A stretch of DNA of 64,000 nt from assembly GCA_018093385.1 (NCBI GenBank), contig GCA_018093385.1_4808.1. One strand, 5' to 3'. Of this stretch, positions 41,016-60,857 are shown piece by piece. The position numbers and the translations under genes are program-made. This stretch comes from a phage. The notes beneath the pieces were generated by a model. The model saw only the letters and a program-made list of their open reading frames with translations, did not search any database and was not told the DNA's origin. Numbering within the stretch: the first letter of the stretch is position 1; each line of letters opens with the position of its first letter.

Positions 41016-41024
41016 GATGCACCA

Positions 41025-41933: not shown

Positions 41934-41992
41934 TTGATATTTTCCTATAGTATCAAGTTTCGTGGCAACCTGATTTCAAGATAAAGGTTAAA

Positions 41993-42550
41993 TTACTTTT
42001 TGCTTTTAGGCAAGGTTATTTTAGCTTCTTTGTATTCAAAAACGCTAATATCTTCACTAACTGGATTGCCTGCTTCCAGCTGTTCTTTTACAAATGACTT
42101 CAGTGTAGCAGAATGAACGCCTTGTTTCAATGTGGCTTCAACACCATCTTCACGCAGCGCGGCAACAATCTCTTGCGCCTGTTCGATTTCTTCGCGACCG
42201 AACTCAGCCGTGACGCTGGACTTGATCAGGCCGCCGTAACCGTTGTTGACAAGCCAATCGAAAACTTTTAATTCGTTTTCTTTCTTGATCGAAGCATTCA
42301 CCTTGGACTCGACCTTGATTTTGGTCTTGTCCTCAAGCTTGATCTCAGACACGCCAAGCTCATCCATAACGCCAGGAAGCAGAACAGTTTTGATTTCACT
42401 GATTCGCTGCTTTTGCATATCAGCTTCATCTTCAAGCTCTGTCAAAGCTTCTTGGCGTTCTGCCAGTTCAGATACTAAGCGCGCAAGGCGCTCTTGAATG
42501 CTCTCAGGAGCGACCTGCGGCAAATCATCTTCCCAATTAATATTGCTCAT
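41993..42550 (-). CDS. Hypothetical coiled-coil protein
   Basis: 185 aa, GAAGG SD. Confidence 0.45.
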   Translation of the reverse strand: MSNINWEDDLPQVAPESIQERLARLVSELAERQEALTELEDEADMQKQRISEIKTVLLPGVMDELGVSEIKLEDKTKIKVESKVNASIKKENELKVFDWLVNNGYGGLIKSSVTAEFGREEIEQAQEIVAALREDGVEATLKQGVHSATLKSFVKEQLEAGNPVSEDISVFEYKEAKITLPKSKK

Positions 42551-42810
42551 ATTTTACCTTCTTGCATTAGCCCTTCAACACGGGTCATTTGATAACGTTC
42601 AGGTTTCCAAGCCGCCAAAGCCTTCTCAGCGCCTTTCAAGGTTTTATATGCCTTGATGCCAGGCATAATAACGGTATTCACCCCAGCACCGTTGCCATAA
42701 TCAAACTCTTTAACAACGCGGAACATCCCGTCAATTTCTTTGACCAAAAGACGTTTGAAAGCGATTGCGCCAGTAGCTTCATTTTTGTAACGTTCAAGGA
42801 TGCGTACCAT
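42547..42810 (-). CDS. Hypothetical protein
   Basis: 87 aa, GAGGA SD. Confidence 0.45.
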   Translation of the reverse strand: MVRILERYKNEATGAIAFKRLLVKEIDGMFRVVKEFDYGNGAGVNTVIMPGIKAYKTLKGAEKALAAWKPERYQMTRVEGLMQEGKI

Positions 42811-42842
42811 TTTGTATTCCTCTGTTTCGTTTCGATGAAGTA

Positions 42843-42871
42843 ATTATGACTCATCTTCCGTGACAAGTCAA
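42843..42871 (-). promoter_or_regulatory. Promoter TTGACT-N17-CATAAT; shares about 30 bp with the promoter at 49676-49704
   Basis: ttcgtttcgatga(a/g)gtaa(t/a)tat(g/a)actcatc present at both sites. Confidence 0.45.
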
Positions 42872-42884
42872 ATTATTTTTGATA

Positions 42885-44408: not shown

Positions 44409-44827
44409 TACAATTCCTCTAAATACTTGATGATGTGATGAATAGTTCCCTTCACGATTATCTCACGTTGAACGTCTGCAGTATTATAACGCTTTAATTC
44501 AATAGAAGGGTGGACTAAATAAAACATCTTCTCAGAATCAACCTTAAGCAGAACAAATGATGGGTATTTCCAATCATTCCACGAAGAAAGAAAGCTGCAT
44601 TGGCCTTTCTCAAATGCATTTCTGAAAGGTGCAGTGGTGGCCCTTGCAGGCCACGATTCAAAGAACTTCATTTCAAGCCAAAAGCCGCGCCCTTTCCGGT
44701 TGGTGCCGATTACGTCCGGCACGCCATCGCCCGTCATTGACTCGATTCGTTGAAGCTTCAATACCGATTCTGAATGCTTCTTCAAAGGCACGAATATGTA
44801 TTTCTGCTCACGGTTATTTGTTGCCAT
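44408..44827 (-). CDS. VRR-NUC domain nuclease
   Basis: GVPD...LEMK PD-(D/E)xK-type motif; adjacent to SNF2 helicase. Confidence 0.6.
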   Translation of the reverse strand: MATNNREQKYIFVPLKKHSESVLKLQRIESMTGDGVPDVIGTNRKGRGFWLEMKFFESWPARATTAPFRNAFEKGQCSFLSSWNDWKYPSFVLLKVDSEKMFYLVHPSIELKRYNTADVQREIIVKGTIHHIIKYLEEL

Positions 44828-47711: not shown

Positions 47712-48253
47712 TATTTACTCCAGATGTCATATACGCCAATTTGTTGGCAGACTTTGTGCAGTAATATTACGTCGTCTAATGCACGGTGCTTCTGTTCATA
47801 TTTTCCGAAATATAATTCATACAGCTCTTGAAGCTTAACTCTTCGGCCAAAAATAGGCAAGGTTTGCTCAACTGTACATATGTTTATTTCTGGAAAATTA
47901 ACATCATCAAGCGTAAGTCCTTCGCGCTGTAGTGCATAATCAAGAATGTTTTTATCGAACGCATGGTTGTGCGCGATAGTTGCATCAGTCTTCTTGAAGA
48001 TTTCTTTTAGCTGCGGGACGAAATTGATGAACGGTGGATTGCACTCAAGGTCTTCATTTGTTAATCCGGTAATCTTTGTGATGATTTCTTCGATCACGAT
48101 TTCAGGATTAATTATGAATTCAAACGTTTCAAGAATCTCTTTGCCGTCTGTCAGCAAGCCTGCAAATTCAATAGGGCGCGGCTGCATTCCAAGCGGCGCT
48201 TTCGGGTGCACGGTTAATCCGGTTGTTTCGAAGTCATAAGGGAGAAATAACAC
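47711..48253 (-). CDS. DnaQ-like 3'-5' proofreading exonuclease (GTG start)
   Basis: Exo motifs YDFETTGL, HNHAFD, HRALDD; AGGAGG SD. Confidence 0.75.
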   Translation of the reverse strand: MLFLPYDFETTGLTVHPKAPLGMQPRPIEFAGLLTDGKEILETFEFIINPEIVIEEIITKITGLTNEDLECNPPFINFVPQLKEIFKKTDATIAHNHAFDKNILDYALQREGLTLDDVNFPEINICTVEQTLPIFGRRVKLQELYELYFGKYEQKHRALDDVILLHKVCQQIGVYDIWSK

Positions 48254-48263
48254 ATTGGCCTCC

Positions 48264-48292
48264 TACAAAAAGGCCGCCCATTAGGACGGCCA
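48264..48292 (-). terminator. Rho-independent terminator between the enzyme island and the exonuclease gene
   Basis: GGCCGTCC-loop-GGGCGGCC followed by TTTTTG on minus strand. Confidence 0.55.
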
Positions 48293-48307
48293 CAGATTCA
48301 CGATTCG

Positions 48308-48859
48308 TTATACAGTGTACGGAGTACCGTCTTGATTTAAGCGCACGATAAACTTCAAATCAACGCCGATGATTTCACGCGTATCAAAGATCACATAGTT
48401 GTAACGACGTTGACCAGCAATGTTCGGGTTGGTATGAGAGTCAGTTACAACTTCCTGTGCAACCTGAATACCTTCTTCGCTAAAGAACTTACGCCATTCA
48501 GCAAGTTCAGCGGCAGTCACGTGCATACCAAGGTGGCTGACCTGATTGTCATGCGCATCGATATATTCGATGTTTTCGTTAATCCAGTTGCAGCCCATTG
48601 TGTAGTCAAGGATTTCAAGCTCAAGAGGCTTACCAGCGCCGCCATCAGTACCGTTGCCAGCCTGATAGTTGAAGCGCAAGTCAGCTTCATTGGTGCAATC
48701 GTCGCGACGACCTTTAAAGTCATCAGCTTCAAATACGCGACCAGTAGCAACAACATGATCATGGAACCATTCTGTCAGGCCGATTTTAGCCAAGAAATCC
48801 TGTGCGCGCTGAGCATCTGGAATTGACAGGGCGATTTGTTCAATTTTAAAATGTGGCAT
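48308..48859 (-). CDS. VOC-fold (glyoxalase/dioxygenase-like) protein, putative
   Basis: Two beta-alpha-beta-like modules; weak motif-level call. Confidence 0.35.
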   Translation of the reverse strand: MPHFKIEQIALSIPDAQRAQDFLAKIGLTEWFHDHVVATGRVFEADDFKGRRDDCTNEADLRFNYQAGNGTDGGAGKPLELEILDYTMGCNWINENIEYIDAHDNQVSHLGMHVTAAELAEWRKFFSEEGIQVAQEVVTDSHTNPNIAGQRRYNYVIFDTREIIGVDLKFIVRLNQDGTPYTV

Positions 48860-48955
48860 TTTGTTTCCTTAATTAAATATTATTGATTAATTACTGTGTT
48901 GTCTTCGTCCTGTTTCTTTTCAGGAGCGGGTGTGACAACTTCAAATGTTCGTGAT

Positions 48956-49639
48956 TTATTTACCAAATGGAATATCAGTACCAGACATAAAGCGCCATGC
49001 GCCTGTAATTAAGATATGGCGAATGAAGTCAGCAATTACTTGCGGCTCAGTCTCCAATCCATTCATCAATGCCTTTTTCTGGTATTCAGCGGCGTATTCA
49101 GGAGTCCAGCCGCGAGTCGCGCAAACTGCATCTTCAATCTGTTTAGACATGCCAGTGCCGCGCAACTTGTTAGGACTAATAGAGAATACCGTGATGCCGT
49201 ACTTAGGCGTAAGTTCGTGAGCCATCTGCTTGCTGATCATAAGCGCAGCGGCCTTGGATGCATTATAACACAAGCTGGACGTCATAGGAATATGCGCAGC
49301 GTTGGAAACGATGTTGATCACAAAGCCTTTGTTGTCGATAAGACTTTTCAGCGCAGCCTGAGTCGTGTTAACGAAAGAGAATGCGTTGGTGTGCATAACG
49401 CGGTTAAACTCTTCATAGTTTACATCTTCAAACCAATTGTTAGAGTTGACACCAGCACAGTTGATCAAGCCTTCAACATCATATGGGCTTAAAATTTCTT
49501 TCATCTGTTTAGCATCGCGGACGTCATATCCGTATGCTGAATCGATGCCAAGCACGTTATGACCGTAAGCGCCAAGGGTGTCAAAAATAGATTTACCAAG
49601 ACCGGAATTGGAACCTGTTACAACAATTACTTTTTTCAT
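48956..49639 (-). CDS. Short-chain dehydrogenase/reductase (classical SDR)
   Basis: TGSNSGLG, NCAG, YNASK motifs. Confidence 0.7.
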   Translation of the reverse strand: MKKVIVVTGSNSGLGKSIFDTLGAYGHNVLGIDSAYGYDVRDAKQMKEILSPYDVEGLINCAGVNSNNWFEDVNYEEFNRVMHTNAFSFVNTTQAALKSLIDNKGFVINIVSNAAHIPMTSSLCYNASKAAALMISKQMAHELTPKYGITVFSISPNKLRGTGMSKQIEDAVCATRGWTPEYAAEYQKKALMNGLETEPQVIADFIRHILITGAWRFMSGTDIPFGK

Positions 49640-49660
49640 TTATTTATCCTTTTTGGACTT

Positions 49661-49704
49661 CGTTTCGATGAGGTAAATATAACTCATCGAAACGCACAAG
49701 TAAA
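49661..49704 (-). promoter_or_regulatory. Promoter TTTACT-N17-TATATT with 12-bp perfect inverted repeat (49661-49672 / 49683-49694) centred on the -10
   Basis: Read directly on minus strand upstream of SDR gene. Confidence 0.5.
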
Positions 49705-50580
49705 CTATTTATTGAAATTAATATTATGGGTGTTTACAAGACGTTCACACATGGCGCTATAAACACCATCGTCGTGTATTGAGTCTTCGTGCTTCAGGCC
49801 GCTGATTGCGAAGCGTGTAAGCTTGACAATCTTAAGCTCGAACAGATGCCACATGTGGTAGTCTTCCGGTGTTTTCAGCGTCACGCCATTAGGGAACAGT
49901 ACCTGCATAACCTGACCTACCATCACAGCGTTATCGCCATAGACAGCGTTGCGCTCACGGAAGGTCGCGGCCATCGCATCAAGAATATCGGCGGCGGTTG
50001 CTGGGCCTTGTGGTTCAACTTCAACAACTTTAGTCTCTTCTTTCCCTGTTGCGCTTGGATCAACTGCTAATTGCTGCACCATTTCACCTGCCTTGCAAAG
50101 ATTAAATGTAAAAGCGATTTTATTTTGAGCAACGGAATTATAATACAAGGCTTCATCTTGCATCGCCGCGAGTACGTCTTGTCGGTCGTCGAATACATTA
50201 ATGATTCGATAATCGCCGTGCCGCAAAGCGTGCGATAGCCATCCAGATTTCATAATAGTTGATGGACGTTTGTCGCCAGAGTCTCTCATCTTGATTGTAA
50301 ATTCATCAAAAGGGAAAACATTGTCCAGACGTTCAAAAGTCACTTGTCTGTATTTTTCTGGCCTTGCAGTCCAATATTCAACCGCCTCACCGCGAAGAGA
50401 TGCCGACTCTACTGCTGATGCAATGTGAGGATAGAACTGATCATAACCAATACCGCTGTGATAGTCATCATAGTCTGACAACGGACCTGCCACCTTGATG
50501 CGGTCTAAGCGCCAACGGTCATCAAACAGCGTTCCGTCAAGGTCGAATACGTTTAAGATTTCGCTGTTTTTAATGCTCAT
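49705..50580 (-). CDS. HAD-superfamily phosphatase-like protein with uncharacterised C-terminal domain
   Basis: HAD motif I DLDGTL near N-terminus. Confidence 0.5.
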   Translation of the reverse strand: MSIKNSEILNVFDLDGTLFDDRWRLDRIKVAGPLSDYDDYHSGIGYDQFYPHIASAVESASLRGEAVEYWTARPEKYRQVTFERLDNVFPFDEFTIKMRDSGDKRPSTIMKSGWLSHALRHGDYRIINVFDDRQDVLAAMQDEALYYNSVAQNKIAFTFNLCKAGEMVQQLAVDPSATGKEETKVVEVEPQGPATAADILDAMAATFRERNAVYGDNAVMVGQVMQVLFPNGVTLKTPEDYHMWHLFELKIVKLTRFAISGLKHEDSIHDDGVYSAMCERLVNTHNINFNK

Positions 50581-51380
50581 CCTTTTGATACTCCATCTTT
50601 AGCAACTGGATTGTTGGTGATTGGCATTGCACTCCAAAACTGGATGCGCAACTCTTCTTGCTGTGCCGTGGTATCCATCCAATCACGATACCAAGGGCAA
50701 TGGGCTTTGCCATGACGAGGAAACGCGCACTTACCCATACCGATGCACTGGGGCTGTAGTAAAGGATTGGCCCACGGGTGCACCTTAAGGACTTCCGCAA
50801 CCATTGCACGGAATACTTCTTGATACTCGCCTTGAGTACGCGTGCACAAGCGGTTAGAGGCCATTTGTTGCAGAGTGCGCAAGTTGAACTTTGCCATGAT
50901 ATGCGTTTGCATATTAGAAGGCAACACGGCACGTGCATCTTGAATCTCTGCGCCAGCCGCGCGAAGTTCTTGGTATAGGGCGTCAATGGTTGCCATTGCA
51001 TCATCCCATTTCTCTGCCAGTTCAGCAGCCTTCTCGTCATGACGAGTCCATCCCTTTGGATCATCCTCTGGGTAAGTAAATTTGGCAGGACGAATCGCAT
51101 CAAATGCTGACGACTCCTGAGCGCGGCTTGTGCGTTCTTGATATGCACCTGTGCGTGTGCGCACCATCTGATGAGTCATATTCTTTGATACATCAGTGAT
51201 GTCAAAGATATAGTCCACAAAGTCAAAAGGCGACTTGATTGTATCAAGCATGTAGCGCCAGTGCTCTTGCTTCTCTGATTCTGTCATCTCAGAGACTGGC
51301 TTACCAGTCATGCGCGTGTTCTTTGTTTCCAGCAAAAGGTCAAGTGCATCTTGGGTGTATCGAATTAATTCAACTTTCAT
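50577..51380 (-). CDS. thyX: Flavin-dependent thymidylate synthase (ThyX-like)
   Basis: VRTRTGAYQERTSR resembles the ThyX RHR...S...R signature. Confidence 0.55.
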   Translation of the reverse strand: MKVELIRYTQDALDLLLETKNTRMTGKPVSEMTESEKQEHWRYMLDTIKSPFDFVDYIFDITDVSKNMTHQMVRTRTGAYQERTSRAQESSAFDAIRPAKFTYPEDDPKGWTRHDEKAAELAEKWDDAMATIDALYQELRAAGAEIQDARAVLPSNMQTHIMAKFNLRTLQQMASNRLCTRTQGEYQEVFRAMVAEVLKVHPWANPLLQPQCIGMGKCAFPRHGKAHCPWYRDWMDTTAQQEELRIQFWSAMPITNNPVAKDGVSKG

Positions 51381-51393
51381 TTTAATTATCCTA

Positions 51394-51840
51394 TTAACGG
51401 TAATTCACTAGTTGCTGATCACCAGAGAAGGTGCAATGATAAACGAATTGTGCGTTATAAAGCAACTGAAAACTTTTCTTTGGTTCATTATTAGAACTCA
51501 TTGATGTAAAGATTTCTGCACCAGAACGGTTTTCACCAATCAGGTTAATAAAGCCGCCAGTTGAACGAGGCTGAACGAAAGTGAAACGCTGCATCCACGG
51601 AGTCCGGTTGGCACCTTTTCCGGTGAATCCCTGAATCTGAATATTCAGACCTTCTTGCTCGTTCACACCGATGTAAGTGGTAATTGTTGCGCCAGTCGTC
51701 GCTGCGGTCTTGCCGTCCATCGCTTCGCAATCGTAAACAGCGATTGAATCGGAAGTACGGACAGCGGCTTCAGTCGCTTCCATATACATGGTTCCGAGAA
51801 TAGCAGTCGCGGCAAGCGCGATTCCAGTGATGCGTTTCAT
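51394..51840 (-). CDS. Secreted protein of unknown function
   Basis: Signal peptide MKRITGIALAATAILGTMYMEATEAA; AGAGGAAA SD. Confidence 0.5.
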   Translation of the reverse strand: MKRITGIALAATAILGTMYMEATEAAVRTSDSIAVYDCEAMDGKTAATTGATITTYIGVNEQEGLNIQIQGFTGKGANRTPWMQRFTFVQPRSTGGFINLIGENRSGAEIFTSMSSNNEPKKSFQLLYNAQFVYHCTFSGDQQLVNYR

Positions 51841-51858
51841 TTTCGTTTCCTCTATGAG

Positions 51859-51905
51859 TTCTGCTTCAATGATTAAAGTATACGCCCATTGAAGCAGAAA
51901 GCAAA
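51859..51905 (-). promoter_or_regulatory. Promoter TTTGCT-N17-TATACT with 13-bp perfect inverted repeat (51859-51871 / 51887-51899) flanking the -10
   Basis: Read directly; same architecture as 49661-49704. Confidence 0.5.
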
Positions 51906-52901
51906 TTATTTATTAGCAATATAAGCAAATTTTTGATAGTTATTTGCTTTGATGAGTTTTTCAACTTCAGCAAGGTCATGAGCGACGTCATCAAGCAAAA
52001 TGTTTCGCCAAGTAGCGAATCGACCGACACTAAATACGTTCAAATCCATAGTCAACTGGAGCAGTAAGGCGTGGCGCAAGTCTTTCGGAATGTCGACAAT
52101 TTTGCCATACTTCTGGTCAACCTTTTCAACTTCTTCCAAAGAGATGTCATTCCATGAAAGACCAAAAGCGGTAAGAACTTCATCCACTTCTGCACGCAGC
52201 TTCATGTCGCGATAACGGGTAATGCCGCCAGCGGCTTCAACTGCTGCCGCGCTGACGCTTACCAATGGAATTGTTTCAATGATCAGCGTGTCACCAGTGA
52301 TTGATGCGCGGTAAGTCCTTACAGAATAGTCAGGGAAGTAAATTGTTTGATAAAGTTCACACTTGCGCTTAATCTTAAAACGATAAACGCGAATATTTGC
52401 CTTATCAAACGAGAAGTCGAGCTTTTGATCAATACCAGCAAGCTTCATCATGACTGGCAGCGGCGATGTGTTGATGATTGGCGTCTCGCTATAGCCGCAA
52501 AGCGTGTCGACCGGAGTATTAAAGAATATACGGTCACCCAGTTTATCGACAAGTTGATCATAAAAGTCATCCGGCGCTATGTAGCGCGTAGCAGTTTGAA
52601 GCTTCATGATTGAGCGGCTGCCAAACTGGTTGGTGACTTTCATAGAGTACATATTGGCAAGGTTAATCGGGCAGTGGCCGTGATAGTAGTTGCCACGAAA
52701 ATACACAGCCTTATCGACTGTCACGGCCTTAAAGGGGATTCCGGTAATACGGCTTACTTCTTCGCCGCGAAATCGTAGCAGCGCCTTGTGCTGCGCGACG
52801 CGTTCGCCTGCTTCGTACACAATAGAGTTCGGAAAGTGACAAGCCGTGATAAGTCCTGCCAGTCCGCCGCCGATAATCATTACAGGTTGTTTCATGTTCA
52901 T
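51906..52901 (-). CDS. FAD/NAD(P)-binding oxidoreductase (UDP-galactopyranose mutase / amine-oxidase-like fold, putative)
   Basis: N-terminal Rossmann IIGGGLAGL; C-terminal GRFATWRNILLDDV resembles the family tail. Confidence 0.5.
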   Translation of the reverse strand: MNMKQPVMIIGGGLAGLITACHFPNSIVYEAGERVAQHKALLRFRGEEVSRITGIPFKAVTVDKAVYFRGNYYHGHCPINLANMYSMKVTNQFGSRSIMKLQTATRYIAPDDFYDQLVDKLGDRIFFNTPVDTLCGYSETPIINTSPLPVMMKLAGIDQKLDFSFDKANIRVYRFKIKRKCELYQTIYFPDYSVRTYRASITGDTLIIETIPLVSVSAAAVEAAGGITRYRDMKLRAEVDEVLTAFGLSWNDISLEEVEKVDQKYGKIVDIPKDLRHALLLQLTMDLNVFSVGRFATWRNILLDDVAHDLAEVEKLIKANNYQKFAYIANK

Positions 52902-52978
52902 TTGTCCTTTGTGGGTGATATGATAAGTATAATAGCTAAATTATCTTACAGCAACAAGTCATTTTATTTAGTACAGAC

Positions 52979-53006
52979 GAAAAAAGACCCACAACTAGTG
53001 TGGGTC
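52979..53006 (-). terminator. Rho-independent terminator (GACCCACA-loop-TGTGGGTC, U6 on minus strand)
   Basis: Perfect 8-bp stem and AAAAAA on plus strand. Confidence 0.7.
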
Positions 53007-53034: not shown

Positions 53035-53877
53035 TTATTCTGCTTGATCGTCGTGCTCTTCGGCATCTGCTTCGGATTCAACATCGATGAACTCGATGTG
53101 GCCCATCTCTTCCAGTTTGCTCAGGTAAGAGCGAACTGAAGCGCCAAACAGCTGATCTTTAACTTTTTCACCCAGCTCGTCGATAGACTGCGGCTGACCG
53201 ATTTCACCTTCTTTGATCGCAGCCAGTACGCGACCACGGGTGGAATGTTCTTGCGGCTGGCTCAGGCCGTTTCCGGTGTAAACAAAGTGAGTTGCTTTAG
53301 CGCGACGCTGACCATTAGCTTTCTTGGCGGCTTTACGCTCTGCAATCGCTTTGCGACGCTCTTCAGCTTCTTTCTTACGCTGTTCTTTCTGTTGTTCTGC
53401 AGCTTCTTTCGCCGCGATCTTAGCAGCTTCACGCTCTGCCTTGCGTTTCGCTTTCGCTTCTTCTTTAGCCTTTTCTTTTTCGGCTTTCGCTTCTGCACGG
53501 GCCTGATCACGTTCAGCCTTTTTCGCCGCAGCTTGTTCAGCTTTCAGGCGCTTGGCTTCTTCTTTCGCCTTTGCCTTTTCAATTTCTTTAGCGGCTTTAG
53601 CGGCTTCACGCTCTGCCTTCTTAGCAGCAGCCTTTTCAGCACGCTCTGCAGCCTTCTTAGCGGCTTCTTCAGCACGCTTCTGAGCCTTCTCGTCAGCAGC
53701 CTGCTTGCGTTTCAGCGCAGCTTCTTCACGCTTGGCTTGTTTTTCCTGCTCACGCTTCTGGCGTTTTTCTTCGGCTTCTTTCTTTTTAGCCAGGCGTTTT
53801 TCTTCAGCCACGCGACGACGTTCTGCTGCGGCTGCTTGTTTTTCTTCTTTAGATAATACTTTGATTGCTTCGGCCAT
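53035..53877 (-). CDS. Lys/Ala/Glu-rich low-complexity protein with globular C-terminal domain
   Basis: About 190 aa of KAE repeats then about 85 aa of normal composition; ATG 53877 has AAGGA SD (ORF track 53883 is GTG). Confidence 0.5.
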   Translation of the reverse strand: MAEAIKVLSKEEKQAAAAERRRVAEEKRLAKKKEAEEKRQKREQEKQAKREEAALKRKQAADEKAQKRAEEAAKKAAERAEKAAAKKAEREAAKAAKEIEKAKAKEEAKRLKAEQAAAKKAERDQARAEAKAEKEKAKEEAKAKRKAEREAAKIAAKEAAEQQKEQRKKEAEERRKAIAERKAAKKANGQRRAKATHFVYTGNGLSQPQEHSTRGRVLAAIKEGEIGQPQSIDELGEKVKDQLFGASVRSYLSKLEEMGHIEFIDVESEADAEEHDDQAE

Positions 53878-54036
53878 ATTCACAGTCCTTAAATAAATTA
53901 GTTTATTTTATATTCCCCGTTTGGGATAACTTAATTATGCCTTCAGTCGCCGCCAGTAGCAACTAAAAACTATGGCGGCAATGCCACTTTAATTAAACTG
54001 ATTTTCAGTTTTATTTTTCGTAAATTTACGTCAACA

Positions 54037-55221
54037 TTAACGCGCTTTCAAATCACGGTACACGGTCAGATTCTTCTTAGCACGGGTGATAGCGGTGTAC
54101 ATCATCTTGGAGTACGGAACGCCGCGCAAGATTTCTTCCAGCACGCACACATTGTCCCACTCGCTGCCTTGCGATTTGTGCACCGTGATGACATAGCCAT
54201 AATCCATCCCGCCAACAGCGCGTTGGGCCTCTTTGCGCACTTCCTGATCAGTAGAGAAGGAAAGAGGATTAATCTTAACCTTTATATCTTTGCCATCGGT
54301 AAGCGAGCGCAAATTGACATACATGATTTCATTGGACTCGTCTTCGTCCCTTTCAAAGTCCGGCACTGGCTCATAGCTAATAACAATCCCTTGCTCGCCA
54401 TTACAGAATCCTGGCCCGTGCTGGTTGAAGGTGCAAATAACTTTCTCGCCGATTCCTGGCATTGGCGTTATACGTCCGCTCACTTGCCGTAATAATGAAT
54501 TCCATTTATCTTTGGTGCTATTATAGGAGCAAATAATTTGATCATCTTCGCCCATGAATTTCTTCAATGCAGTAACGCGCGGCGATTCTGCCAATACTTT
54601 GACGTCATCGTATTCACGCGGAGGAAGGCGGTTGCCTTGGCGCACGAAGAAGGAGGCGCGGATTATATTGGACTCTTTCCCTTGCCGCATGATTTCTGTT
54701 AACAGTACGTCAACGGCTTCTTCGGTAAAGTAGGCGGCGGCTTTTACCGGAGGGACTTGTCCAATGTCGCCTAATGCCAGCACAGGGATGCGGTGATCAA
54801 GAAGGCGCTCTGTGTCCCACTCGCCAACCATCGACGCTTCATCGAGTACAACAAGGTGCGGCCTTTCGTCCAGTTTTGACTTTCTCGAAAAGATTGGCTC
54901 ATTGTCGTCATTTACGCCGCGCACGTTATAGATGAACTGGTGAAGGGTCTTAGCGCCACGACAGCCTTTTTGCTTTAATCGGCTTGCAGCCTTTCCGGTC
55001 GGCGCAATATAGATAGCGCCGTACTCACCGACACAGCGGCGCACAATCTCGCGAGCAATAGAGGTTTTACCAGTCCCTGCATAGCCAGCGATGAAAAACA
55101 CGCGCTTCGTCGTTTTACCGTCCTGCAATCGCTTGTACCATGCAACGGCTTTCTCGATGGCGTCGATTTGTTGCGCGTTAAACTGAATCACTGGCTCATC
55201 ATTAAATTCTGGAATGTTCAT
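54037..55221 (-). CDS. SF1B helicase (Dda/RecD-like)
   Basis: Walker A GYAGTGKT, Walker B VVLDEASM, GDIGQVPP, TVHKSQGSEWD. Confidence 0.8.
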   Translation of the reverse strand: MNIPEFNDEPVIQFNAQQIDAIEKAVAWYKRLQDGKTTKRVFFIAGYAGTGKTSIAREIVRRCVGEYGAIYIAPTGKAASRLKQKGCRGAKTLHQFIYNVRGVNDDNEPIFSRKSKLDERPHLVVLDEASMVGEWDTERLLDHRIPVLALGDIGQVPPVKAAAYFTEEAVDVLLTEIMRQGKESNIIRASFFVRQGNRLPPREYDDVKVLAESPRVTALKKFMGEDDQIICSYNSTKDKWNSLLRQVSGRITPMPGIGEKVICTFNQHGPGFCNGEQGIVISYEPVPDFERDEDESNEIMYVNLRSLTDGKDIKVKINPLSFSTDQEVRKEAQRAVGGMDYGYVITVHKSQGSEWDNVCVLEEILRGVPYSKMMYTAITRAKKNLTVYRDLKAR

Positions 55222-55547
55222 TATAACTCCACTACGCTTTCAAGGTCCAGATATACTGGAATAAAATGGCAATCTTCTTTTCGTTCAAACATCTCACCAT
55301 CAACATGGCTGAAGAAAACAGTTGTGTTTGGTATCTTCCATCCTTTCTCGTCGCGCACTAAGTACGCCATGGATTCAACAGGGATGTACAGCGATACCGG
55401 ATTTGCGGCAAAAATAAATTTGATTCTGTCTGGTTGACCCAGGAATCGCATGATTGTCAGGCTTGAATTCAATCTTGTATTAAGGAAGGACTCAACGATT
55501 CCGACGTGTGTTGCACGTTCGCGTTGCTTCGTCTCTTTTTCGTTCAT
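55221..55547 (-). CDS. Hypothetical protein
   Basis: 108 aa, ATGA-coupled to helicase. Confidence 0.45.
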   Translation of the reverse strand: MNEKETKQRERATHVGIVESFLNTRLNSSLTIMRFLGQPDRIKFIFAANPVSLYIPVESMAYLVRDEKGWKIPNTTVFFSHVDGEMFERKEDCHFIPVYLDLESVVEL

Positions 55548-55585
55548 TTCAGGCGACCTTTGTTAGTGCGGAAATATTTTCTGAT

Positions 55586-55614
55586 AGTATAATTGCAGAT
55601 ATAGTATAAAGCAA
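55586..55614 (-). promoter_or_regulatory. Promoter TTGCTT-N17-TATACT
   Basis: Divergent intergenic region. Confidence 0.45.
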
Positions 55615-55650
55615 AGTAAATCGAAATTGTGAACTAAATGGTAAATATTG

Positions 55651-55678
55651 TTGACTTTGTATCACTCAATATTATACT
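55651..55678 (+). promoter_or_regulatory. Promoter TTGACT-N16-TATACT upstream of primase-polymerase gene
   Basis: Hexamers followed by AAGGAAAG SD. Confidence 0.5.
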
Positions 55679-55707
55679 GCAGGTATTGATCACCGAAGGA
55701 AAGAAAG

Positions 55708-56790
55708 ATGGCTAGTTTAAGAGAAGAAGCAAAAATAATTGAAGAGTTTTTAACAGAACTCCAAAGAGGCATCCCAGAAGATGAGCGCGTCATGACGGTG
55801 TTTGCTCCTGAAGCAACGGTGCAGACTGATGAGCGCGGCAAGAAGATCAACAGCAGCTTCTGGCCTAAGCCTTGGAAGTTGGGCAAGCCGCTCATGCAGC
55901 ACCAAAACGGCTATGCGTGCATCAGTTCAATGCGTAAGGCTCCCAACCCAAAGACGGGTGAGATGCGATACTGGCGTACAGAGTCAGCCTTTGGTCACGG
56001 CATGGCGATGATGGTCGACGACATCGGTCACGGTAAAGGGTCCAAAGGCGATTTAGATTTGGAATTCTTTTTTGAGCGACTGAAGCCGACTGTCATCGTC
56101 GAGACTTCACCGAACAATCACCAGCTTTGGTACTTCTTTAAAGAACCGATTGACCATCTTATTCAGTTCAAAGCGTTCCTTGGGTCTTTCGTTAACATGG
56201 TACTCAAGAAGGGCGGCGACAACACGATTAAAGACGTAACGCGCGTGGGTCGTGTTCCTGGGTGCATCAACAACAAGCGTGTGACTCACGACGGCCCCTA
56301 TAAATATGTCGATGAGAACGGCGACCCGTTCCGCTGCCGACTTGTCCATGCAGACTACTCATTGCGCTACACCATCGAAGACATTTGTCAGGCATTTGGC
56401 TTTCACGTCGTCATGCCGCAAAAGCGTGAAATTCAAATTGACGTTGATGAATACAAATACGACGCTGTTTGGTATAAGATAGCCCAGCAAATCCTTGCGC
56501 GCAATAAGATGGGCGAGGGGTCTGATGGCGATGTTGTTGAAAACATGTCGGGCAAGTGCCGCATCATCTGTCCTTGGGGTGAAGAGCATACCAACGGCGA
56601 CCCGTATGGCGCTTACTTTCGCGGCCCTATCCCTGGTGCAGAACATGAGTTTGTGTTCGGTTGCGCTCACGACTGTCACCGGAAAGGGGAAGGCAAGAAA
56701 GGTTGGACTGCTTTTGTTGAAGCAATCGTCATGCCTTATATTGAGAATCAACTTGACATGATAAATCGTCGTGCAGGTGGCATAAAATAG
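55708..56790 (+). CDS. Primase-polymerase (archaeo-eukaryotic primase-like) with Cys/His-rich C-terminal region
   Basis: Motifs MVDDIG, SPNNHQLWYFF, RVPGCINNK; C-terminal CPWGEEH...CAHDCH. Confidence 0.6.
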   Translation: MASLREEAKIIEEFLTELQRGIPEDERVMTVFAPEATVQTDERGKKINSSFWPKPWKLGKPLMQHQNGYACISSMRKAPNPKTGEMRYWRTESAFGHGMAMMVDDIGHGKGSKGDLDLEFFFERLKPTVIVETSPNNHQLWYFFKEPIDHLIQFKAFLGSFVNMVLKKGGDNTIKDVTRVGRVPGCINNKRVTHDGPYKYVDENGDPFRCRLVHADYSLRYTIEDICQAFGFHVVMPQKREIQIDVDEYKYDAVWYKIAQQILARNKMGEGSDGDVVENMSGKCRIICPWGEEHTNGDPYGAYFRGPIPGAEHEFVFGCAHDCHRKGEGKKGWTAFVEAIVMPYIENQLDMINRRAGGIK

Positions 56791-56848
56791 TTTGCTTTTA
56801 TTTTCATAGCAACTATAATCATTTTATGAACTGAAGCAGAGGTGATTC

Positions 56849-56995
56849 ATGCAAAGCGAAGAATTGAACATCGAGGTTGAATGTCTGTTAAAGTCGTTAG
56901 AACCTAAACCAGCAGAGCTTCCGACCCTTCAAGGCGTCATGGCTCACCATCAAGCGGCTGCGGCCAAACACTACTCTGAATTTGTTAAGGAATAA
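56849..56995 (+). CDS. Small hypothetical protein (48 aa)
   Basis: GAGGTG SD; below ORF-track cutoff. Confidence 0.35.
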   Translation: MQSEELNIEVECLLKSLEPKPAELPTLQGVMAHHQAAAAKHYSEFVKE

Positions 56996-56998
56996 AAG

Positions 56999-57289
56999 AT
57001 GAACGAACCAAAAATGATGACCGTTGAAGAAGCGCAAAAGCTTCGTGTTGAAAACGAGCTTAAGCTTGTCAACCAGATTCTCCCCTTGTTTGCAGGATAC
57101 GCAGTGGAGGAAGTTGTTGGTGCAATCCTTAACGTATCCACGCATGTAGCTATGAATCTTCAGGCCGAGCGATTCAACACGCTGCTGACTATTAAAGACC
57201 TTACAGTCAGTGCAACGTTCACAGTTGAGCCAGTCAATTTTGACGAAGCTTCAGCCGCGATTCAACAGCAAAGAGATCAAGAGGTGTAG
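56999..57289 (+). CDS. Hypothetical protein
   Basis: 96 aa, AAGGA SD. Confidence 0.5.
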   Translation: MNEPKMMTVEEAQKLRVENELKLVNQILPLFAGYAVEEVVGAILNVSTHVAMNLQAERFNTLLTIKDLTVSATFTVEPVNFDEASAAIQQQRDQEV

Positions 57290-57290
57290 C

Positions 57291-57554
57291 ATGGGTGCTT
57301 TCCGTAACGAGTTCATCTGGAACGTTACCAGCAATCTCTCGACTTGTCCTAACTGTGCGAGCGATGTTATCAAGGTGCGGCAGCATCGCAACGCGGAGGA
57401 AGGTGCCTGGGAAGATGGCGACCTTGTAGAGTGCCAGTGCTGCTCTCATGAAGGTGTTGTGGAACTTCACGCTGGCGAAGGTTGTCCACCAGCAGAACGT
57501 ACAGCACGCGTTGAATGGGATGCAACAGACTCCATTGGTGATCCTCAACAGTAA
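57291..57554 (+). CDS. Small zinc-ribbon protein
   Basis: CPNC ... CQCC pairs; AGAGGTG SD. Confidence 0.45.
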   Translation: MGAFRNEFIWNVTSNLSTCPNCASDVIKVRQHRNAEEGAWEDGDLVECQCCSHEGVVELHAGEGCPPAERTARVEWDATDSIGDPQQ

Positions 57555-57673
57555 ATTTAGGTATAGATACTTATGAAAGCCGTAAAGAAATACACATTAA
57601 TCATTTCCCTTGTCATCATCCTGGGGCTATTATATGTATTGGATATGGCATATTATTTGGCAGGGGTGAGTGG

Positions 57674-57964
57674 ATGAATATTGTAATTCTTTATGGTGAA
57701 AATATCAGCGATGACGACATCGAAGTTGCCGTTGATGTTTACGGTATCGATGAGGTGAAACGTGTTGAAGAAATTAGTGGCGCAAATCTCAATGAGATTG
57801 TCAAAGAGGCTGGCTGTCCTTCGGAAGAGATTCTGGTGGTTACTAACGATGACCTGTCTTCTATGGATCATTTGCGCCGCATCTTCACCGATTGCCAATA
57901 CCTTCATGCTGTTCAATCAGTAAACAAATTGAGAAAGGCATACGCCAACCAATTTCCTTGCTGA
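57674..57964 (+). CDS. Hypothetical protein
   Basis: 96 aa. Confidence 0.45.
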   Translation: MNIVILYGENISDDDIEVAVDVYGIDEVKRVEEISGANLNEIVKEAGCPSEEILVVTNDDLSSMDHLRRIFTDCQYLHAVQSVNKLRKAYANQFPC

Positions 57965-58015
57965 TAGTTCACCAGTTATATTGCTTTAAATTGAGTTTTA
58001 CTATATTAATATACA

Positions 58016-58040
58016 ACGCCAGATTTCTGGCGTTTATTTA
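58016..58040 (+). terminator. Rho-independent terminator (ACGCCAG-ATTT-CTGGCGT, T-rich tail)
   Basis: 7-bp stem plus TTTATTT. Confidence 0.6.
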
Positions 58041-58100
58041 CCGCACCCTGAAAGGATATATCCATGCAACAATATAACAAAGCCGTATCAGGAGGATTAA

Positions 58101-59771
58101 ATGTCAATTAATAATGACAATCTTCCAGAGGATACAGGTGATGAATTTGGTGCAATCTTTGACGAAATTCAAGATGCAGGCGTTTCGGAAGAAATGCAGG
58201 CAGCAGAGCAGCAAGGCACCAGAGCTAAAATCAGCCTTCAACATAAAGCTGTTGAAAAAGATTCAGAGCGCATGGAATGCTACGGTGAAGAAGACTTGGT
58301 TGAAAGAGCACGCTTGCTCGCCTCACTTCAGGTAATCAAGTTCCCTCACTACAAGCCTACCAAAGATGACTTCGTTCTACAGGCAGACCGGACGAGTGAC
58401 ATGAACCGTTATGCGGTGTTCGACGCGTTGTTTGATAAGGGAAGTGGCGTCGTTCCATTCCCTCACAAAGATACTTTTCGTGGGCGCTTAGTCGACCATC
58501 GCGGCGAAACATTCACCGACCGTACTTTGGAAGTCACAGAGATAGTTGCCGCTGTCGACGCAGCAGGATTGTCCAACCCAAACTCACGTCAGGTCGCTCA
58601 ATCCTATAAGGAATGGGCCATGCGTTATCAGCGCGACGACCTGATGGACTTCTTCTACAAGAAGCTGCCTGAATGGGACGGTACTGCGCGCATCGAGAAA
58701 TACCTTATCGAGCTATTCCGACCGTTCGATACAGAGTTAAACCGACAAATCGGTGTGTATTTTTGGCTATCGCTCTACAACCGCCTGACCAACCCTGGCT
58801 GTCAAGCGCCAATCTCCATCGCGCTCATCGGCGGCCAGAATGCAGGGAAGAGTTATTTTAGCAAGCTGCTTTGCGAAGCTATTATGAACGACCGCCACGC
58901 AACACCGATTCCGTTGAACTTAGCCGCGCAAAACTTCAACCCGTTCTTGCGAGCTATTACGGGTCGCTCAATTATCGCGAACGTTGGCGAGATGACAGGC
59001 TTTAAAAAGGCCGACATCGAAAACATGAAAGCATTCCTGACTAAGACGGAAGATGACCTGGACTTCAAATTTGAAGATACGCAGGTTAAACCACGCCAGT
59101 GGATTGCTATCATGGACGGCAACGAATACGCAGGCATGCAGCGTGATGACACGGGCAACCGTCGTGTGTACCCTATCTTTGTTGGCCAACTCGCCGACAA
59201 GGACGGGCAACCGAACTGGTCGAAAGATTTCCAAGCTGACCTTTCCACTTTGAAAGAAGACGTTTGGCAGTTGATGGCTGAGTGCGCTGCATGGATGGAG
59301 AAGCACGGCGAAGCAGGTTACAATGCATTTGTTGGTGAAACATCTCGCATGCTTACTGAGTTTAGTAAGAACGAAATGGAACGTGCGCGCGGCGTTATTC
59401 GTGATGAGATGGTGGACAACGACCTTGTTGAAGTCGTCATCACCGCGCCTTATGACCGACATCACAGCGGACGCTGGCACATCACCAGTGGTGCTATTGC
59501 TATGGGATTCAGAGCGAAGTGTGGCAAGTCGCCTTTCTCTCGTACCCTTGCGCCGCACATGTCGAAGCTTGGTTTTGAGCCTGCAACCTATCGCAACCAG
59601 CGCGGGTACTTTACGCCGCTGATTAAGAATGAAGCAGGAGAATACATTTCTGATTTGATGACCATCTTAGCGTATCTTATCCGCGATGAGTCTGACCCTG
59701 AAGATATTGAATTCTTGAAGAAGGTTATTGAGCGTAAACGTTCTTTGGGAAGAGATAAGGATGAATTCTGA
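58101..59771 (+). CDS. VirE-like P-loop NTPase (primase-associated helicase-like)
   Basis: Walker A LIGGQNAGKS; GGAGG SD; follows primase-polymerase gene. Confidence 0.55.
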   Translation: MSINNDNLPEDTGDEFGAIFDEIQDAGVSEEMQAAEQQGTRAKISLQHKAVEKDSERMECYGEEDLVERARLLASLQVIKFPHYKPTKDDFVLQADRTSDMNRYAVFDALFDKGSGVVPFPHKDTFRGRLVDHRGETFTDRTLEVTEIVAAVDAAGLSNPNSRQVAQSYKEWAMRYQRDDLMDFFYKKLPEWDGTARIEKYLIELFRPFDTELNRQIGVYFWLSLYNRLTNPGCQAPISIALIGGQNAGKSYFSKLLCEAIMNDRHATPIPLNLAAQNFNPFLRAITGRSIIANVGEMTGFKKADIENMKAFLTKTEDDLDFKFEDTQVKPRQWIAIMDGNEYAGMQRDDTGNRRVYPIFVGQLADKDGQPNWSKDFQADLSTLKEDVWQLMAECAAWMEKHGEAGYNAFVGETSRMLTEFSKNEMERARGVIRDEMVDNDLVEVVITAPYDRHHSGRWHITSGAIAMGFRAKCGKSPFSRTLAPHMSKLGFEPATYRNQRGYFTPLIKNEAGEYISDLMTILAYLIRDESDPEDIEFLKKVIERKRSLGRDKDEF

Positions 59772-60418
59772 TGAATAAAGCAATCAACATCGCTAAATTC
59801 TTTCAACATCTTGGTGAACTGAACAAAGAAAGTGACGTTCACGGCGAAGAAATGAACCGAATGATCTCAACCGTGTTGCGCGGCTTTGGTTATGATAAGG
59901 ACTCAATCACTTGCAAGCGCACAAAGCTTGTCGATGAGTCTTATCTTTACTACGTAGAGCTGCGCATTGGGAAAGATGTGATGATCATTGACCCTAAACT
60001 GGAAGGGGCGCACTGTTTTGGCGCTCACCCTCGTGCGAGTGAATTCAAGGGTCGCGGTCGCAACCGAATCCAGAAGCTTGATGATGCAGGCGACTTGAAC
60101 ATTGCAATGTTCCTCAAAGAGTTCCTTGCTCTTCCAAAGGTTGCATCATCCACGGGCCGCGATGACCCTTGCAAGATTGGCTTCAGAACTAAAGATTTGC
60201 GCAATGCGCTACGCAAGAAGGGATTTGTGCCTTCTTATGACAACGTCGCCGCGCTGATGGCTTCAATGGAGGAAGCTGAAGCGATGGACAAGGTGCGCGG
60301 CTATTTCCTGAATACAGGCTTCACCATGTATGAATGGCACACGAAGGGATTGACTGTCGCCGACTTCATCTATTCATTAGAGCAGAAGTATGTACGCAAT
60401 ATGCAGGCCACAGGATAA
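59771..60418 (+). CDS. Hypothetical protein
   Basis: 215 aa, overlapping start. Confidence 0.5.
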   Translation: MNKAINIAKFFQHLGELNKESDVHGEEMNRMISTVLRGFGYDKDSITCKRTKLVDESYLYYVELRIGKDVMIIDPKLEGAHCFGAHPRASEFKGRGRNRIQKLDDAGDLNIAMFLKEFLALPKVASSTGRDDPCKIGFRTKDLRNALRKKGFVPSYDNVAALMASMEEAEAMDKVRGYFLNTGFTMYEWHTKGLTVADFIYSLEQKYVRNMQATG

Positions 60419-60457
60419 TCATCATCAAAATATTTGCTTTTCTGACGAGGTGATATT

Positions 60458-60682
60458 ATGATTAATTTAGACAGGATTGAGTTAGCACTTAGTACCTTAA
60501 TCAAATATTACCAGTTTGCTTTTAAGGCTAGTTTGTTCGGCTTGTTCAATCCTCATCAAGCAGCAAAGGCGCGAAGCAATGCTAACCGCCTGCGCTGTAC
60601 TGGTATAGTTATCCACGACCGGATATTGACAGAGGGTAGATTCAGCCATGAATACACAAGGGAGAATAACAAAGCAACGTAG
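60458..60682 (+). CDS. Hypothetical protein
   Basis: 74 aa, GAGGTG SD. Confidence 0.45.
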   Translation: MINLDRIELALSTLIKYYQFAFKASLFGLFNPHQAAKARSNANRLRCTGIVIHDRILTEGRFSHEYTRENNKAT

Positions 60683-60857
60683 GGCTTTACAAGTCCTCAT
60701 CCACTACCTGTCACGCCTTTATCCAACGGCGCACGAGCAGAATCCATCAACGGGTCACCTGTTTAAGCGCCGTAACCTTTCATTGAAGACATTCGCTTTA
60801 ATCCAATACGACCGCTACCTGGACGGGCGCTACTGCGGCCCGAAGGACTCGCTATGA
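60648..60857 (+). CDS. Hypothetical basic protein (weak)
   Basis: 69 aa, overlaps upstream gene by 35 nt. Confidence 0.3.
   Translation: MNTQGRITKQRRALQVLIHYLSRLYPTAHEQNPSTGHLFKRRNLSLKTFALIQYDRYLDGRYCGPKDSL

Follow-up and report, generated by a model that had tools for sequence, protein, structure and literature searches.

A predicted two-gene primase-helicase pair in a Wifcevirus genome, and candidate iteron origins in the same phage

RSF1010 RepB' works with the RepA helicase and a separate initiator, RepC. RepA-family helicases are RecA-type (Kazlauskas et al., PMC5862659). In SaPI1, pri and rep are separate genes and the Rep1 protein co-purified with its primase; in SaPI5 the two are fused (PMC9371898). 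Rep1 is initiator and helicase in one, and its C-terminal winged helix binds iterons next to its own gene (PMC9371898). AEP primases and VirE-type helicases are known to fuse and separate as modules, and these rearrangements have been catalogued (PMC4889955, PMC5862659). For the Pbunavirus Banzai, a 2025 paper annotates the orthologues of both genes described below as DNA primase, and describes the helicase orthologue as homologous to the self-loading helicases of SaPIs and as the likely replication initiator (PMC12390725).

Here we analyzed a stretch of 64,000 nucleotides (the window; Table 1) from the genome of a Wifcevirus, an E. coli phage, with 98% identity to phages TH32, vB_Eco4M-7 and WFC. 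According to an earlier study cited in PMC11990801, Wifcevirus progeny are released only 3-5 min after adsorption. The first-pass annotation of the window had read a primase-polymerase-type gene and a VirE-like gene as separate, and both ORFs lie on the plus strand exactly where it placed them, with matches to PF16793 and PF05272. Across Wifcevirus records, both proteins are 99-100% identical to those of the window and the DNA is 93-98% identical; the Pbunavirus orthologues share 64% (primase) and 44% (helicase) protein identity with them. Separate genes for a primase and a ring helicase are thus real, yet they are already annotated (the RefSeq name of both is "DNA primase", and both are also in PHROGs), and theirs is the normal arrangement throughout the PB1-like group. 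We see no substantive difference between the window pair and its Wifcevirus and Pbunavirus orthologues. Because both genes are annotated, fusion and fission are catalogued, and the Pbunavirus orthologues have been read alike, the two-gene split as such is already known and adds little. As a clean natural split form of a primase-helicase known elsewhere as a fusion, it could be of practical use in dissecting the interaction of the modules.

Table 1. Features of the window, with position, strand and supporting evidence or description.
Feature	Position	Strand	Evidence or description
Candidate origin A, right half	1-230		AT-rich tract 1-50, then iteron-like 9-mers at 81-98, 126-150 and 219-229
Candidate origin B, iterons and AT-rich core	16024-16300		~11 copies of the 9-mer ATCCGTATC in opposed arrays
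SNF2-like helicase	42885-44408	-	
DnaE-like polymerase, 965 aa	44814-47711	-	DNA_pol3_alpha E 3e-63; DNA_pol3_finger E 1e-37; RefSeq annotation
DnaQ-like 3'-5' exonuclease, 180 aa	47711-48253	-	RNase_T E 1e-21; RefSeq annotation
Dda-like SF1B helicase	54037-55221	-	AAA_30, UvrD_C_2; phrog_325 E 4e-99
Sigma-70-like promoter match	55651-55678	+	TTGACT-16-TATACT; 30 nt upstream of primase ATG, divergent intergenic region
Predicted AEP-type DNA primase, 360 aa	55708-56790	+	Orthologues WFC gp074, Bas100_0056, Banzai PBanzai_075
Predicted zinc-binding module of primase, residues 283-325	56554-56682	+	C288-x5-H294-x24-C319-x-H321-x2-(C/H)324
Small ORF, 48 aa	56849-56995	+	No family
Small ORF, 96 aa	56999-57289	+	No family
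Small ORF, 87 aa	57291-57554	+	Cys4 zinc-ribbon-like CPNC...CQCC (CxxC...CxCC)
Small ORF, 34 aa	57573-57677	+	Hydrophobic; stop overlaps next ATG; annotated in WFC and Bas100
Small ORF, 96 aa	57674-57964	+	Acidic; no family
Terminator-like hairpin	58015-58039	+	AACGCCAG-ATTT-CTGGCGTT then TATTT; read by eye; putative terminator in WFC record
Predicted VapE/VirE-family SF3 helicase, 556 aa	58101-59771	+	Orthologues WFC gp080, Bas100_0063, Banzai PBanzai_077

For both proteins, the domain annotation proposed as a check gave profile matches that agree with the predicted fold. The 360-aa protein matches Pfam RepB_primase (PF16793) with 126.9 bits (cutoff 24.3; E 1.1e-36) over residues 40-237 (nt 55825-56418), covering profile positions 4-181 of 186, and phrog_4861 'DNA primase' with E 7e-198. 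The 556-aa protein matches VapE-like_dom (PF05272) with 100.1 bits (cutoff 25; E 1.6e-28) over residues 189-407, and phrog_4630 with E 4e-254. These profile scores are far beyond chance. NCBIfam holds no model for the primase, the helicase or the small ORFs between them.

Direct sequence matches of the primase to solved structures were marginal and confined to RSF1010 RepB' (E 0.4 for the sequence alone, 0.02 for a profile), so that a fold search was needed. Profile and predicted fold both point to an AEP catalytic domain (approximately residues 1-237), followed by a helix (250-265), a Cys/His module predicted to bind zinc and a C-terminal helix (333-356). D104/D105, S134-P135-x-N137-x-Q139, D171/D176 and R179/R182, all invariant in 28 homologues, supply AEP motifs I (DxD), II (sxH or its Gln variant), III (acidic) and IV (Arg). 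D104/D105 correspond in alignment to the two consecutive Asp residues of the RepB' VDDL motif; we infer the residues of motifs III and IV from their order and conservation. Homology and predicted fold thus identify the protein as an AEP-fold primase of the PrimPol-PV1/RepB_primase kind, with primer synthesis predicted. Its Cys/His-rich C-terminus, picked out in the first pass, is conserved in the 28 homologues: none of them varies at C288, H294, C319 or H321, and residue 324 is either C or H in all. The UL52/PrimPol-type zinc finger after an AEP domain has the pattern C-x(4-6)-H...C-x4-C; that of the module is C-x5-H...C-x-H-x2-(C/H). Four orthologous fragments of the module gave no Pfam match at E up to 10.

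If the primase acted like RSF1010 RepB', it would prime only at one or two ssi-type hairpins at the origin, mostly in leading-strand mode and with no fork-coupled lagging-strand priming. We consider this quite unlikely. The helix-bundle C-terminal domain needed in RepB' is replaced by the zinc module in the phage protein, the primase gene is accompanied by an SF3 helicase gene in 43 of 51 loci, relatives encode the two as a single protein, and no ssi-like hairpin was identified. Moreover, a 68-kb genome encoding a ligase and a protein annotated as polynucleotide kinase/phosphorylase fits discontinuous synthesis.

The surroundings of the pair had been described as a large self-contained replisome. 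The DnaE-like polymerase, the DnaQ-like exonuclease and the two helicases (SNF2-like and Dda-like) that this description named are indeed in the window, but no clamp, clamp loader or SSB was recognized with Pfam and PHROGs among the unassigned ORFs of the replication module, so that 'self-contained' is supported only in part. The DnaE-like and DnaQ-like pair (44814-48253) is presumed to use the primers. Because it is present, polymerase activity of the AEP should not be needed, and we take 'primase-polymerase' as a fold label for the 360-aa protein. That the AEP is a true primase-polymerase and copies large portions of the genome, as happens in phages NrS-1 and S-2L, strikes us as extremely improbable, since the phage has a full DnaE-like polymerase and, next to it, a DnaQ-like proofreader, a pair conserved across the phage group. 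The Dda-like gene is transcribed divergently from the primase gene. The promoter match between them scores 10/12, as a consensus match of a type that, like terminator matches, is not above shuffled controls in a scan of 55200-60600.

The helicase begins with a disordered N-terminus (residues 1-28) and an N-terminal domain (29-188), followed by the ATPase (189-383), a long helix (384-427), a winged-helix-like domain (431-510; nt 59391-59630) and a variable tail ending in Phe556. Its ATPase has the elements of the SF3 AAA+ fold, namely Walker A (G244-x4-GKS251), Walker B (E297), motif C (N341) and an arginine finger (R354/R355). In the monomer model, residues 436-504 follow the order H-E-H-H-E-E expected for a winged helix. 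By sequence, the protein matches PDB 7pds ('similar to D. nodosus vapE') with E 4e-11. Homology and predicted fold together identify it as a VapE-family SF3 helicase with a three-tier layout like that of SaPI1 Rep1, predicted to form hexamers and to unwind DNA. The C-terminal domain is the least conserved folded part (24%, versus 58% for the ATPase), which fits a role in lineage-specific DNA recognition. The VapE-like protein might instead be only an origin-binding initiator or primase loader, with the fork unwound by the Dda-like SF1B helicase, the SNF2-like translocase or host DnaB. The phage does encode these two further helicase-like ATPases, and the VirE/VapE family was long uncharacterized (PMC4889955); we nonetheless judge this reading unlikely.

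Among the 51 related phage loci, the primase gene lies upstream of the helicase gene on the same strand in 43; the two are fused in none, and the split is kept in all 43 loci with both genes seen. Fused forms appear elsewhere, as anticipated in the first pass. A search of 1.84 billion representatives with a profile places close relatives of the full-length 360-aa protein at the N-terminus of 850-1050-aa proteins. One of these, P0241 (946 aa), joins RepB_primase to VapE-like_dom, with 37% identity between its C-terminal part and the window helicase; other primase relatives are fused to DUF5906, DUF927, AAA_25 or DUF3987 ATPases. Such orthologous fusions agree with Kazlauskas et al. 2016 and 2018 (PMC4889955, PMC5862659). 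By a rough count, some two in three of the 150 highest-ranked representatives are standalone proteins of 300-400 aa. The split is therefore not unusual, and in the PB1-like phage group it is universal.

Small genes do lie between primase and helicase, although there are five well-supported ORFs rather than the four first counted, and one public record annotates a sixth (39 aa). None has a functional family match in Pfam, PHROGs or NCBIfam. The zinc-ribbon label given to one of them reflects the cysteine pattern of the 87-aa ORF, whose Pfam zinc-ribbon matches stay below threshold (E 0.03-0.09); the same ORF matches phrog_4446, of unknown function, with E 3e-10. The terminator-like hairpin, which the consensus scan missed, separates the block of primase and small genes from the helicase gene. 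We also considered the 48-aa ORF as a conserved small primase partner. Its translation, compared by eye with those of the same-position ORFs of Pbunavirus LS1 and Serratia MTx, has no visible similarity to them, and this candidate was therefore rejected. The spacer itself ranges from 11 bp to >5 kb across relatives: the two genes are 11 bp apart in FoX7, Pbunavirus has one unrelated 61-aa membrane-like ORF, and MTx carries >5 kb of other genes. The small ORFs, and the zinc-ribbon protein in particular, could in principle be subunits of a primase-helicase complex, being co-oriented with the primase and partly overlapping, one with a Cys4 motif. Their absence or unrelatedness in these sister genera, together with the lack of any functional family match, makes this very improbable. 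We regard them as genus-specific accessory insertions outside the conserved module.

Taken together, we think it probable that the pair is a two-gene primosome of a PB1-like lytic myophage, operating by the following steps, each proposed by analogy. A helicase hexamer would load itself at the origin through the C-terminal winged-helix-like domain and unwind 3'->5' on the leading-strand template. The primase would dock on the helicase and make short primers, its zinc module holding the template or the initiating nucleotide, and the phage DnaE-like polymerase with its DnaQ-like proofreader would extend them. The invariant C-terminal Phe of the helicase probably serves to dock a partner protein, and the origins are probably two iteron-plus-AT-rich elements elsewhere in the window.

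These two elements look like replication origins by analogy, in that iteron arrays flank an AT-rich region. Candidate origin B lies upstream of the head-protease gene, in a 563-nt noncoding gap that is the longest ORF-free gap of the window, and holds the window's most AT-rich 70-mer. In its arrays, copies of the 9-mer lie at 16075-16101 on the minus strand and at 16196-16222 and 16278-16295 on the plus strand, on either side of 76 nt with 91% A+T (16120-16195). All seven exact copies in the window fall within this element, against a uniform expectation of 0.49 per window. The element is kept in 29 of 29 Wifcevirus records; in Bas101 it is shorter by exactly one 9-nt unit. Because the whole core is nearly invariant, substitutions in six Wifcevirus copies do not discriminate iterons from spacers, and the Bas101 deletion is the one informative event. 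Candidate origin A holds the second most AT-rich 70-mer. In WFC it occupies 68459-68899, with the left half (~230 nt) just before the terminal-repeat boundary, so that the cluster straddles the boundary.

Around the helicase gene itself (55400-60700), a search for iterons or inverted repeats returned only short two-copy repeats at chance level. One single one-mismatch iteron, AGCCGTATC (58081-58089), lies just before the helicase ribosome-binding site and is not significant, because chance alone would give ~9.6 such matches across the window. The window lacks the SaPI-like layout with an iteron origin right after the helicase gene, because a coding gene directly follows and overlaps the helicase stop codon. 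Several relatives carry lineage-specific iteron arrays in that place: six copies of a CGTTATT/AATAACG core in FoX7, an array of CCAAATTAC in LS1 and, in IMG/VR locus L049, 11 copies of AAGGTTAC that all lie <=310 nt from the helicase stop codon and flank an AT-rich tract; L056, L030 and other relatives have iterons there as well. The strongest 8-mer repeat of a locus (at least four copies) falls within ~800 nt after the helicase stop in ~11 of 36 loci, a statistic biased by noncoding gaps being richer in repeats than coding DNA and by the phylogenetic relatedness of the loci.

The link between helicase and iterons draws on analogy and on gene neighborhood in relatives, and the repeats could instead serve packaging or a different DNA-binding protein. 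GC-skew analysis in Pbunavirus instead placed putative origins inside the replication module (PMC12390725). The literature that we searched contained no report of iterons or iteron-type origins in PB1-like phages, and the candidate origins may be new as an observation. We tentatively suggest, as a possibility we rate somewhat below its negation, that PB1-like phages start replication at iteron origins that their own VapE-family SF3 helicase recognizes through its winged-helix-like domain, a case of SaPI-like self-loading in a lytic phage with a large genome. Two such origins would exist in Wifcevirus, and the split AEP-zinc primase, possibly also the DnaE-like polymerase, would be recruited via the helicase N-terminal domain and the invariant C-terminal Phe. 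If real, the candidate origins offer a testable replication map for Wifcevirus and for Pbunavirus therapy phages, and as a by-product they are more useful than the split itself.

Among described systems, the PrimQH/All3500-type AEP-helicase fusions of mobile elements, including cyanophage S-2L PrimPol (PDB 6zp9; Kazlauskas et al. 2018, PMC5862659), are one polypeptide, whereas the window encodes two. The poxvirus D5/E5 and ASFV C962R primase-helicases are likewise fused, belong to eukaryotic viruses, and have a D5N collar without the VapE signature. In RSF1010 RepB' (PDB 3h20, 3h25), the C-terminal domain is a helix bundle (PriCT-1) and zinc is absent (PMC4434180, PMC5862659); the phage primase departs from the narrow-sense RepB' family, its C-terminal part being a helix, a beta-rich Cys/His module and a long helix in place of the bundle. 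Compared with the SaPI systems, sequence identity between SaPI Rep and the phage helicase is only 19%, and the iterons lie next to the rep gene in SaPI1 but away from the helicase gene in the window. A SaPI is also a satellite island, whereas the window comes from a lytic phage of 68 kb that encodes a DnaE/DnaQ pair of its own. In gene organization, SaPI1 Pri and Rep1 are split like the phage pair, and SaPI5 PriRep5 is the fused counterpart (PMC9371898; PDB 7pds, 7ola).

Domain annotation of both proteins, named beforehand as the check, bore out the first-pass annotation's proposal that the primase-polymerase and the VirE-like ATPase are encoded by separate genes: each of two ORFs matches the corresponding Pfam family above its cutoff (see the table). 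Homologues of the primase, of ~355-400 aa, occur across PB1-like phages, in Pbunavirus (64% identity) and in phages of Pantoea, Serratia, Erwinia, Burkholderia, Xanthomonas and Luteibacter; 365 phage records match it in total. In an alignment of 28 diverse members, D104-D105, T133-S134-P135-x-N137-x-Q139, D171, D176, R179 and R182 are invariant; the two adjacent Asp residues of the VDDL motif are the counterparts of D104-D105 in RSF1010 RepB'. Within the PrimPol-PV1 supergroup, a motif II with Gln where His is usual, together with the motif IV Arg, marks RepB'-like and PolpTN2-like enzymes (Kazlauskas et al., PMC5862659). The profile match, the invariant residues and the Gln motif II signature thus place the 360-aa protein among the AEPs, in the Pfam family RepB_primase, but outside the narrow architecture of RSF1010 RepB'.

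Replication features of the window, with profile matches
Feature	Coordinates	Strand	Length	Matches and remarks
Primase ORF	55708-56790	+	360 aa	Pfam RepB_primase (E 1.1e-36; 126.9 bits, cutoff 24.3; residues 40-237); phrog_4861 (E 7e-198)
Hairpin with short T-tail	58015-58039			Between the small-ORF block and the helicase gene; terminator annotation in WFC
Helicase ORF	58101-59771	+	556 aa	Pfam VapE-like_dom (E 1.6e-28; residues 189-407), DUF5906 weakly; phrog_4630 (E 4e-254)
DnaE-like polymerase		-	965 aa	DNA_pol3_alpha (E 3e-63)
DnaQ-like exonuclease		-
SNF2-like ATPase		-
Dda-like helicase		-
Ligase; polynucleotide kinase/phosphorylase-annotated protein		-

Homologues of the helicase (~515-690 aa) come from the same phages as those of the primase. 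Residues conserved without exception include the P-loop G244-x4-GKS251, E297, N341 and both arginines of GNRR (R354/R355). Among the folded parts, conservation is lowest in the C-terminal domain (mean identity 24%, versus 58% for the ATPase), and residues 436-504 of the predicted structure follow the order H-E-H-H-E-E, which is winged-helix-like. The predicted model also has the three tiers of SaPI1 Rep1 (PDB 7pds), an SF3 hexameric helicase that is also a replication initiator and whose C-terminal winged helix binds iterons flanking an AT-rich region immediately downstream of rep (Qiao et al., PMC9371898).

The helicase tail (residues 511-556, nt 59631-59768) is unconserved and of low model confidence, yet it ends in Phe in 28 of 28 homologues, usually preceded by Gly, Asp, Glu, Ser or Ala. 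A C-terminal Phe is also found on T7 gp4, T7 gp2.5 and E. coli SSB, whose tails bind partner proteins; by analogy, the terminal Phe of the helicase offers a lead to a possible docking tail of this kind. At the helicase stop codon, the ATG of a 215-aa ORF (59771-60418) overlaps it (ATGA), which suggests translational coupling. This ORF has no match in Pfam or PHROG, and the annotations of Pbunavirus LS1 and Xanthomonas phage FoX7 show no equivalent gene there.

The 4.2-kb region that holds both genes is 97-98% identical in DNA to the E. coli myophages TH32, vB_Eco4M-7 and vB_EcoM_WFC and to the BASEL phages Bas98-101, all of the genus Wifcevirus, and 29 phage records match it over its full length (window coordinates equal those of WFC plus ~46). 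Both large ORFs already carry the label "DNA primase" in RefSeq NC_048195 (gp074, gp080) and in Bas100 (Bas100_0056, 0063); the BASEL paper on Wifcevirus does not mention the primase. For the Pbunavirus Banzai, a 2025 study described a DnaE-like polymerase, an epsilon-like exonuclease, a primase, a ligase and three helicase-like proteins, named the VapE-type protein a homologue of the SaPI self-loading helicases and the leading initiator candidate, and inferred origins from GC skew only, which pointed to a site within the DnaE gene (PMC12390725). Given these annotations and that interpretation, the split of primase and helicase is already known at both levels. We found no biochemical characterisation of this phage group in the literature searched.

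The two genes are separated by ORFs of 48, 96, 87, 34 and 96 aa, with a sixth of 39 aa annotated in one record, so that the small intervening genes claimed in the first-pass annotation are there but do not number four. The 87-aa ORF has the CxxC...CxCC pattern behind the claim of a zinc-ribbon gene, but its zinc-ribbon profile matches are all sub-threshold. Spacer size and content vary widely among relatives: 11 bp in FoX7, one unrelated 61-aa ORF in LS1, ~1.3 kb in Wifcevirus, 3.5 kb in one IMG/VR locus (L040) and >5 kb in Serratia MTx. This variation indicates that the spacer is an insertion hotspot, whose genes differ by lineage and do not belong to the machine.

The primase lies upstream on the same strand in 43 of the 51 IMG/VR loci with a helicase orthologue, and the two are fused in none of the 51. 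A primase profile search of 1.84 billion representatives gave 1031 matches with E of 0.001 or less. Some of the top-scoring proteins are 850-1050 aa long and match the whole profile with their N-terminal 350-370 residues, including the C-terminal zinc module of the primase; such fusions among near relatives agree with the earlier remark that these modules are often joined elsewhere. One of them, P0241 (946 aa), combines RepB_primase with VapE-like_dom and, in its C-terminal portion, shares 37% identity with residues 26-439 of the window's helicase; in other fused relatives the ATPase is DUF5906, DUF927, AAA_25 or DUF3987. The fused relatives share the modular pattern of PrimQH and All3500 AEPs, in which the AEP is followed by a PriCT or Zn-binding domain, a VirE-type or other ATPase and a winged helix (PMC5862659, PMC4889955). 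An approximate count puts standalone proteins at about two thirds of the 150 best representatives; the split form is ordinary. SaPI1 likewise has pri and rep as separate genes, with Rep1 co-purified with its primase, and SaPI5 has them fused (PMC9371898). The first interpretation is essentially right; the split is ancestral, common and already known in a phage group with many members, and is therefore of low interest in itself.

The DnaE-like polymerase, the DnaQ-like exonuclease and two more helicase-like genes (SNF2-like and Dda-like) are present as first described, and lie with the ligase and kinase/phosphorylase genes on the strand opposite to primase and helicase. The "self-contained replisome" built on them stands in part: profile searches of the replication module (window 38000-53000) recognised no sliding clamp, clamp loader or SSB. 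The host may supply processivity factors, or unassigned ORFs may encode them. The DnaE-like polymerase is short. Beside the Dda-like helicase, in a conserved position, lies the gene of a 282-aa protein (53035-53883, minus strand). This protein is for the most part a low-complexity helix rich in Lys, Ala and Glu, and its C-terminal end is folded and acidic. Its profile match is phrog_4765 (unknown function), and in ECML-117 it bears the name 'TolA'. Most likely, a Rep1-like self-loading SF3 helicase would work with a separately encoded AEP-zinc primase, which would feed the phage DnaE/DnaQ polymerase. Homology and predicted fold identify these proteins, whose activities and mutual contacts we infer.

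Since the analogy with Rep1 predicts iterons, we searched the window for them and found none around the helicase gene (55400-60700). Of all short-repeat clusters in the window, the strongest is at 16024-16300. It contains all seven exact copies of the 9-mer ATCCGTATC in the 64 kb (uniform expectation 0.49), or ~11 with degenerate copies. Three minus-strand copies (16075-16101) oppose three plus-strand copies (16196-16222) across a 76-nt tract of 91% A+T, which contains the window's most AT-rich 70-mer and sits upstream of the head-protease gene in a 563-nt gap, the longest in the window without an ORF. The element is kept in 29 of 29 Wifcevirus records; in Bas101 (L093) exactly one 9-nt unit of the left array (window 16075-16083) is missing, a copy-number change by one. 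We infer that 16024-16300 is a candidate replication origin.

A second, weaker and more degenerate cluster of the same 9-mer, arranged around an AT-rich tract, occupies 1-230; it contains the window's second most AT-rich 70-mer and continues upstream in WFC (L010 2760-3200, WFC 68459-68899). Because the 3.8-kb direct terminal repeat of WFC begins inside the AT-rich centre of this cluster, it could serve as another origin or take part in forming the genome ends; a packaging role for an element at the terminal-repeat boundary is conceivable. Near the same end, the 10-mer TTTGCACTAT (consensus aaTTTGCACTATg) occurs in eight exact and four one-mismatch copies at 264-1835, all on the plus strand, within 1.6 kb of the left end; the rest of the 64 kb has none (0.12 exact copies expected under uniformity). 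The array runs through genes of both strands.

Relatives have this design too, built from other repeats. The syntenic gap upstream of the protease gene holds a different repeat in LS1, where CCAAATTAC clusters there and also in the gap that directly follows the helicase gene (L006 32400-32800). In FoX7 (L009 3570-3890), the first sequence after the helicase gene is an AT-rich tract with six CGTTATT/AATAACG cores around it. Among 36 non-redundant IMG/VR loci of roughly 11 kb each, ~11 have their strongest 8-mer repeat (at least four copies) within ~800 nt after the helicase stop; in one, L049 (6434-6750), 11 copies of AAGGTTAC all fall within 310 nt, as opposed arrays around an AT-rich tract. 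Lineage-specific iteron arrays with an AT-rich centre directly downstream of the VapE-type helicase gene recur in several PB1-like lineages (also L056, L030, L037, L036 and L045), and we found no report of them in the papers searched. By analogy, these repeats lend circumstantial support to the helicase as an iteron-binding initiator, circumstantial because repeats abound in noncoding gaps in general and the loci share ancestry. The layout in these lineages is that of the SaPIs, whose iterons lie downstream of rep, whereas the Wifcevirus elements do not adjoin the helicase gene.
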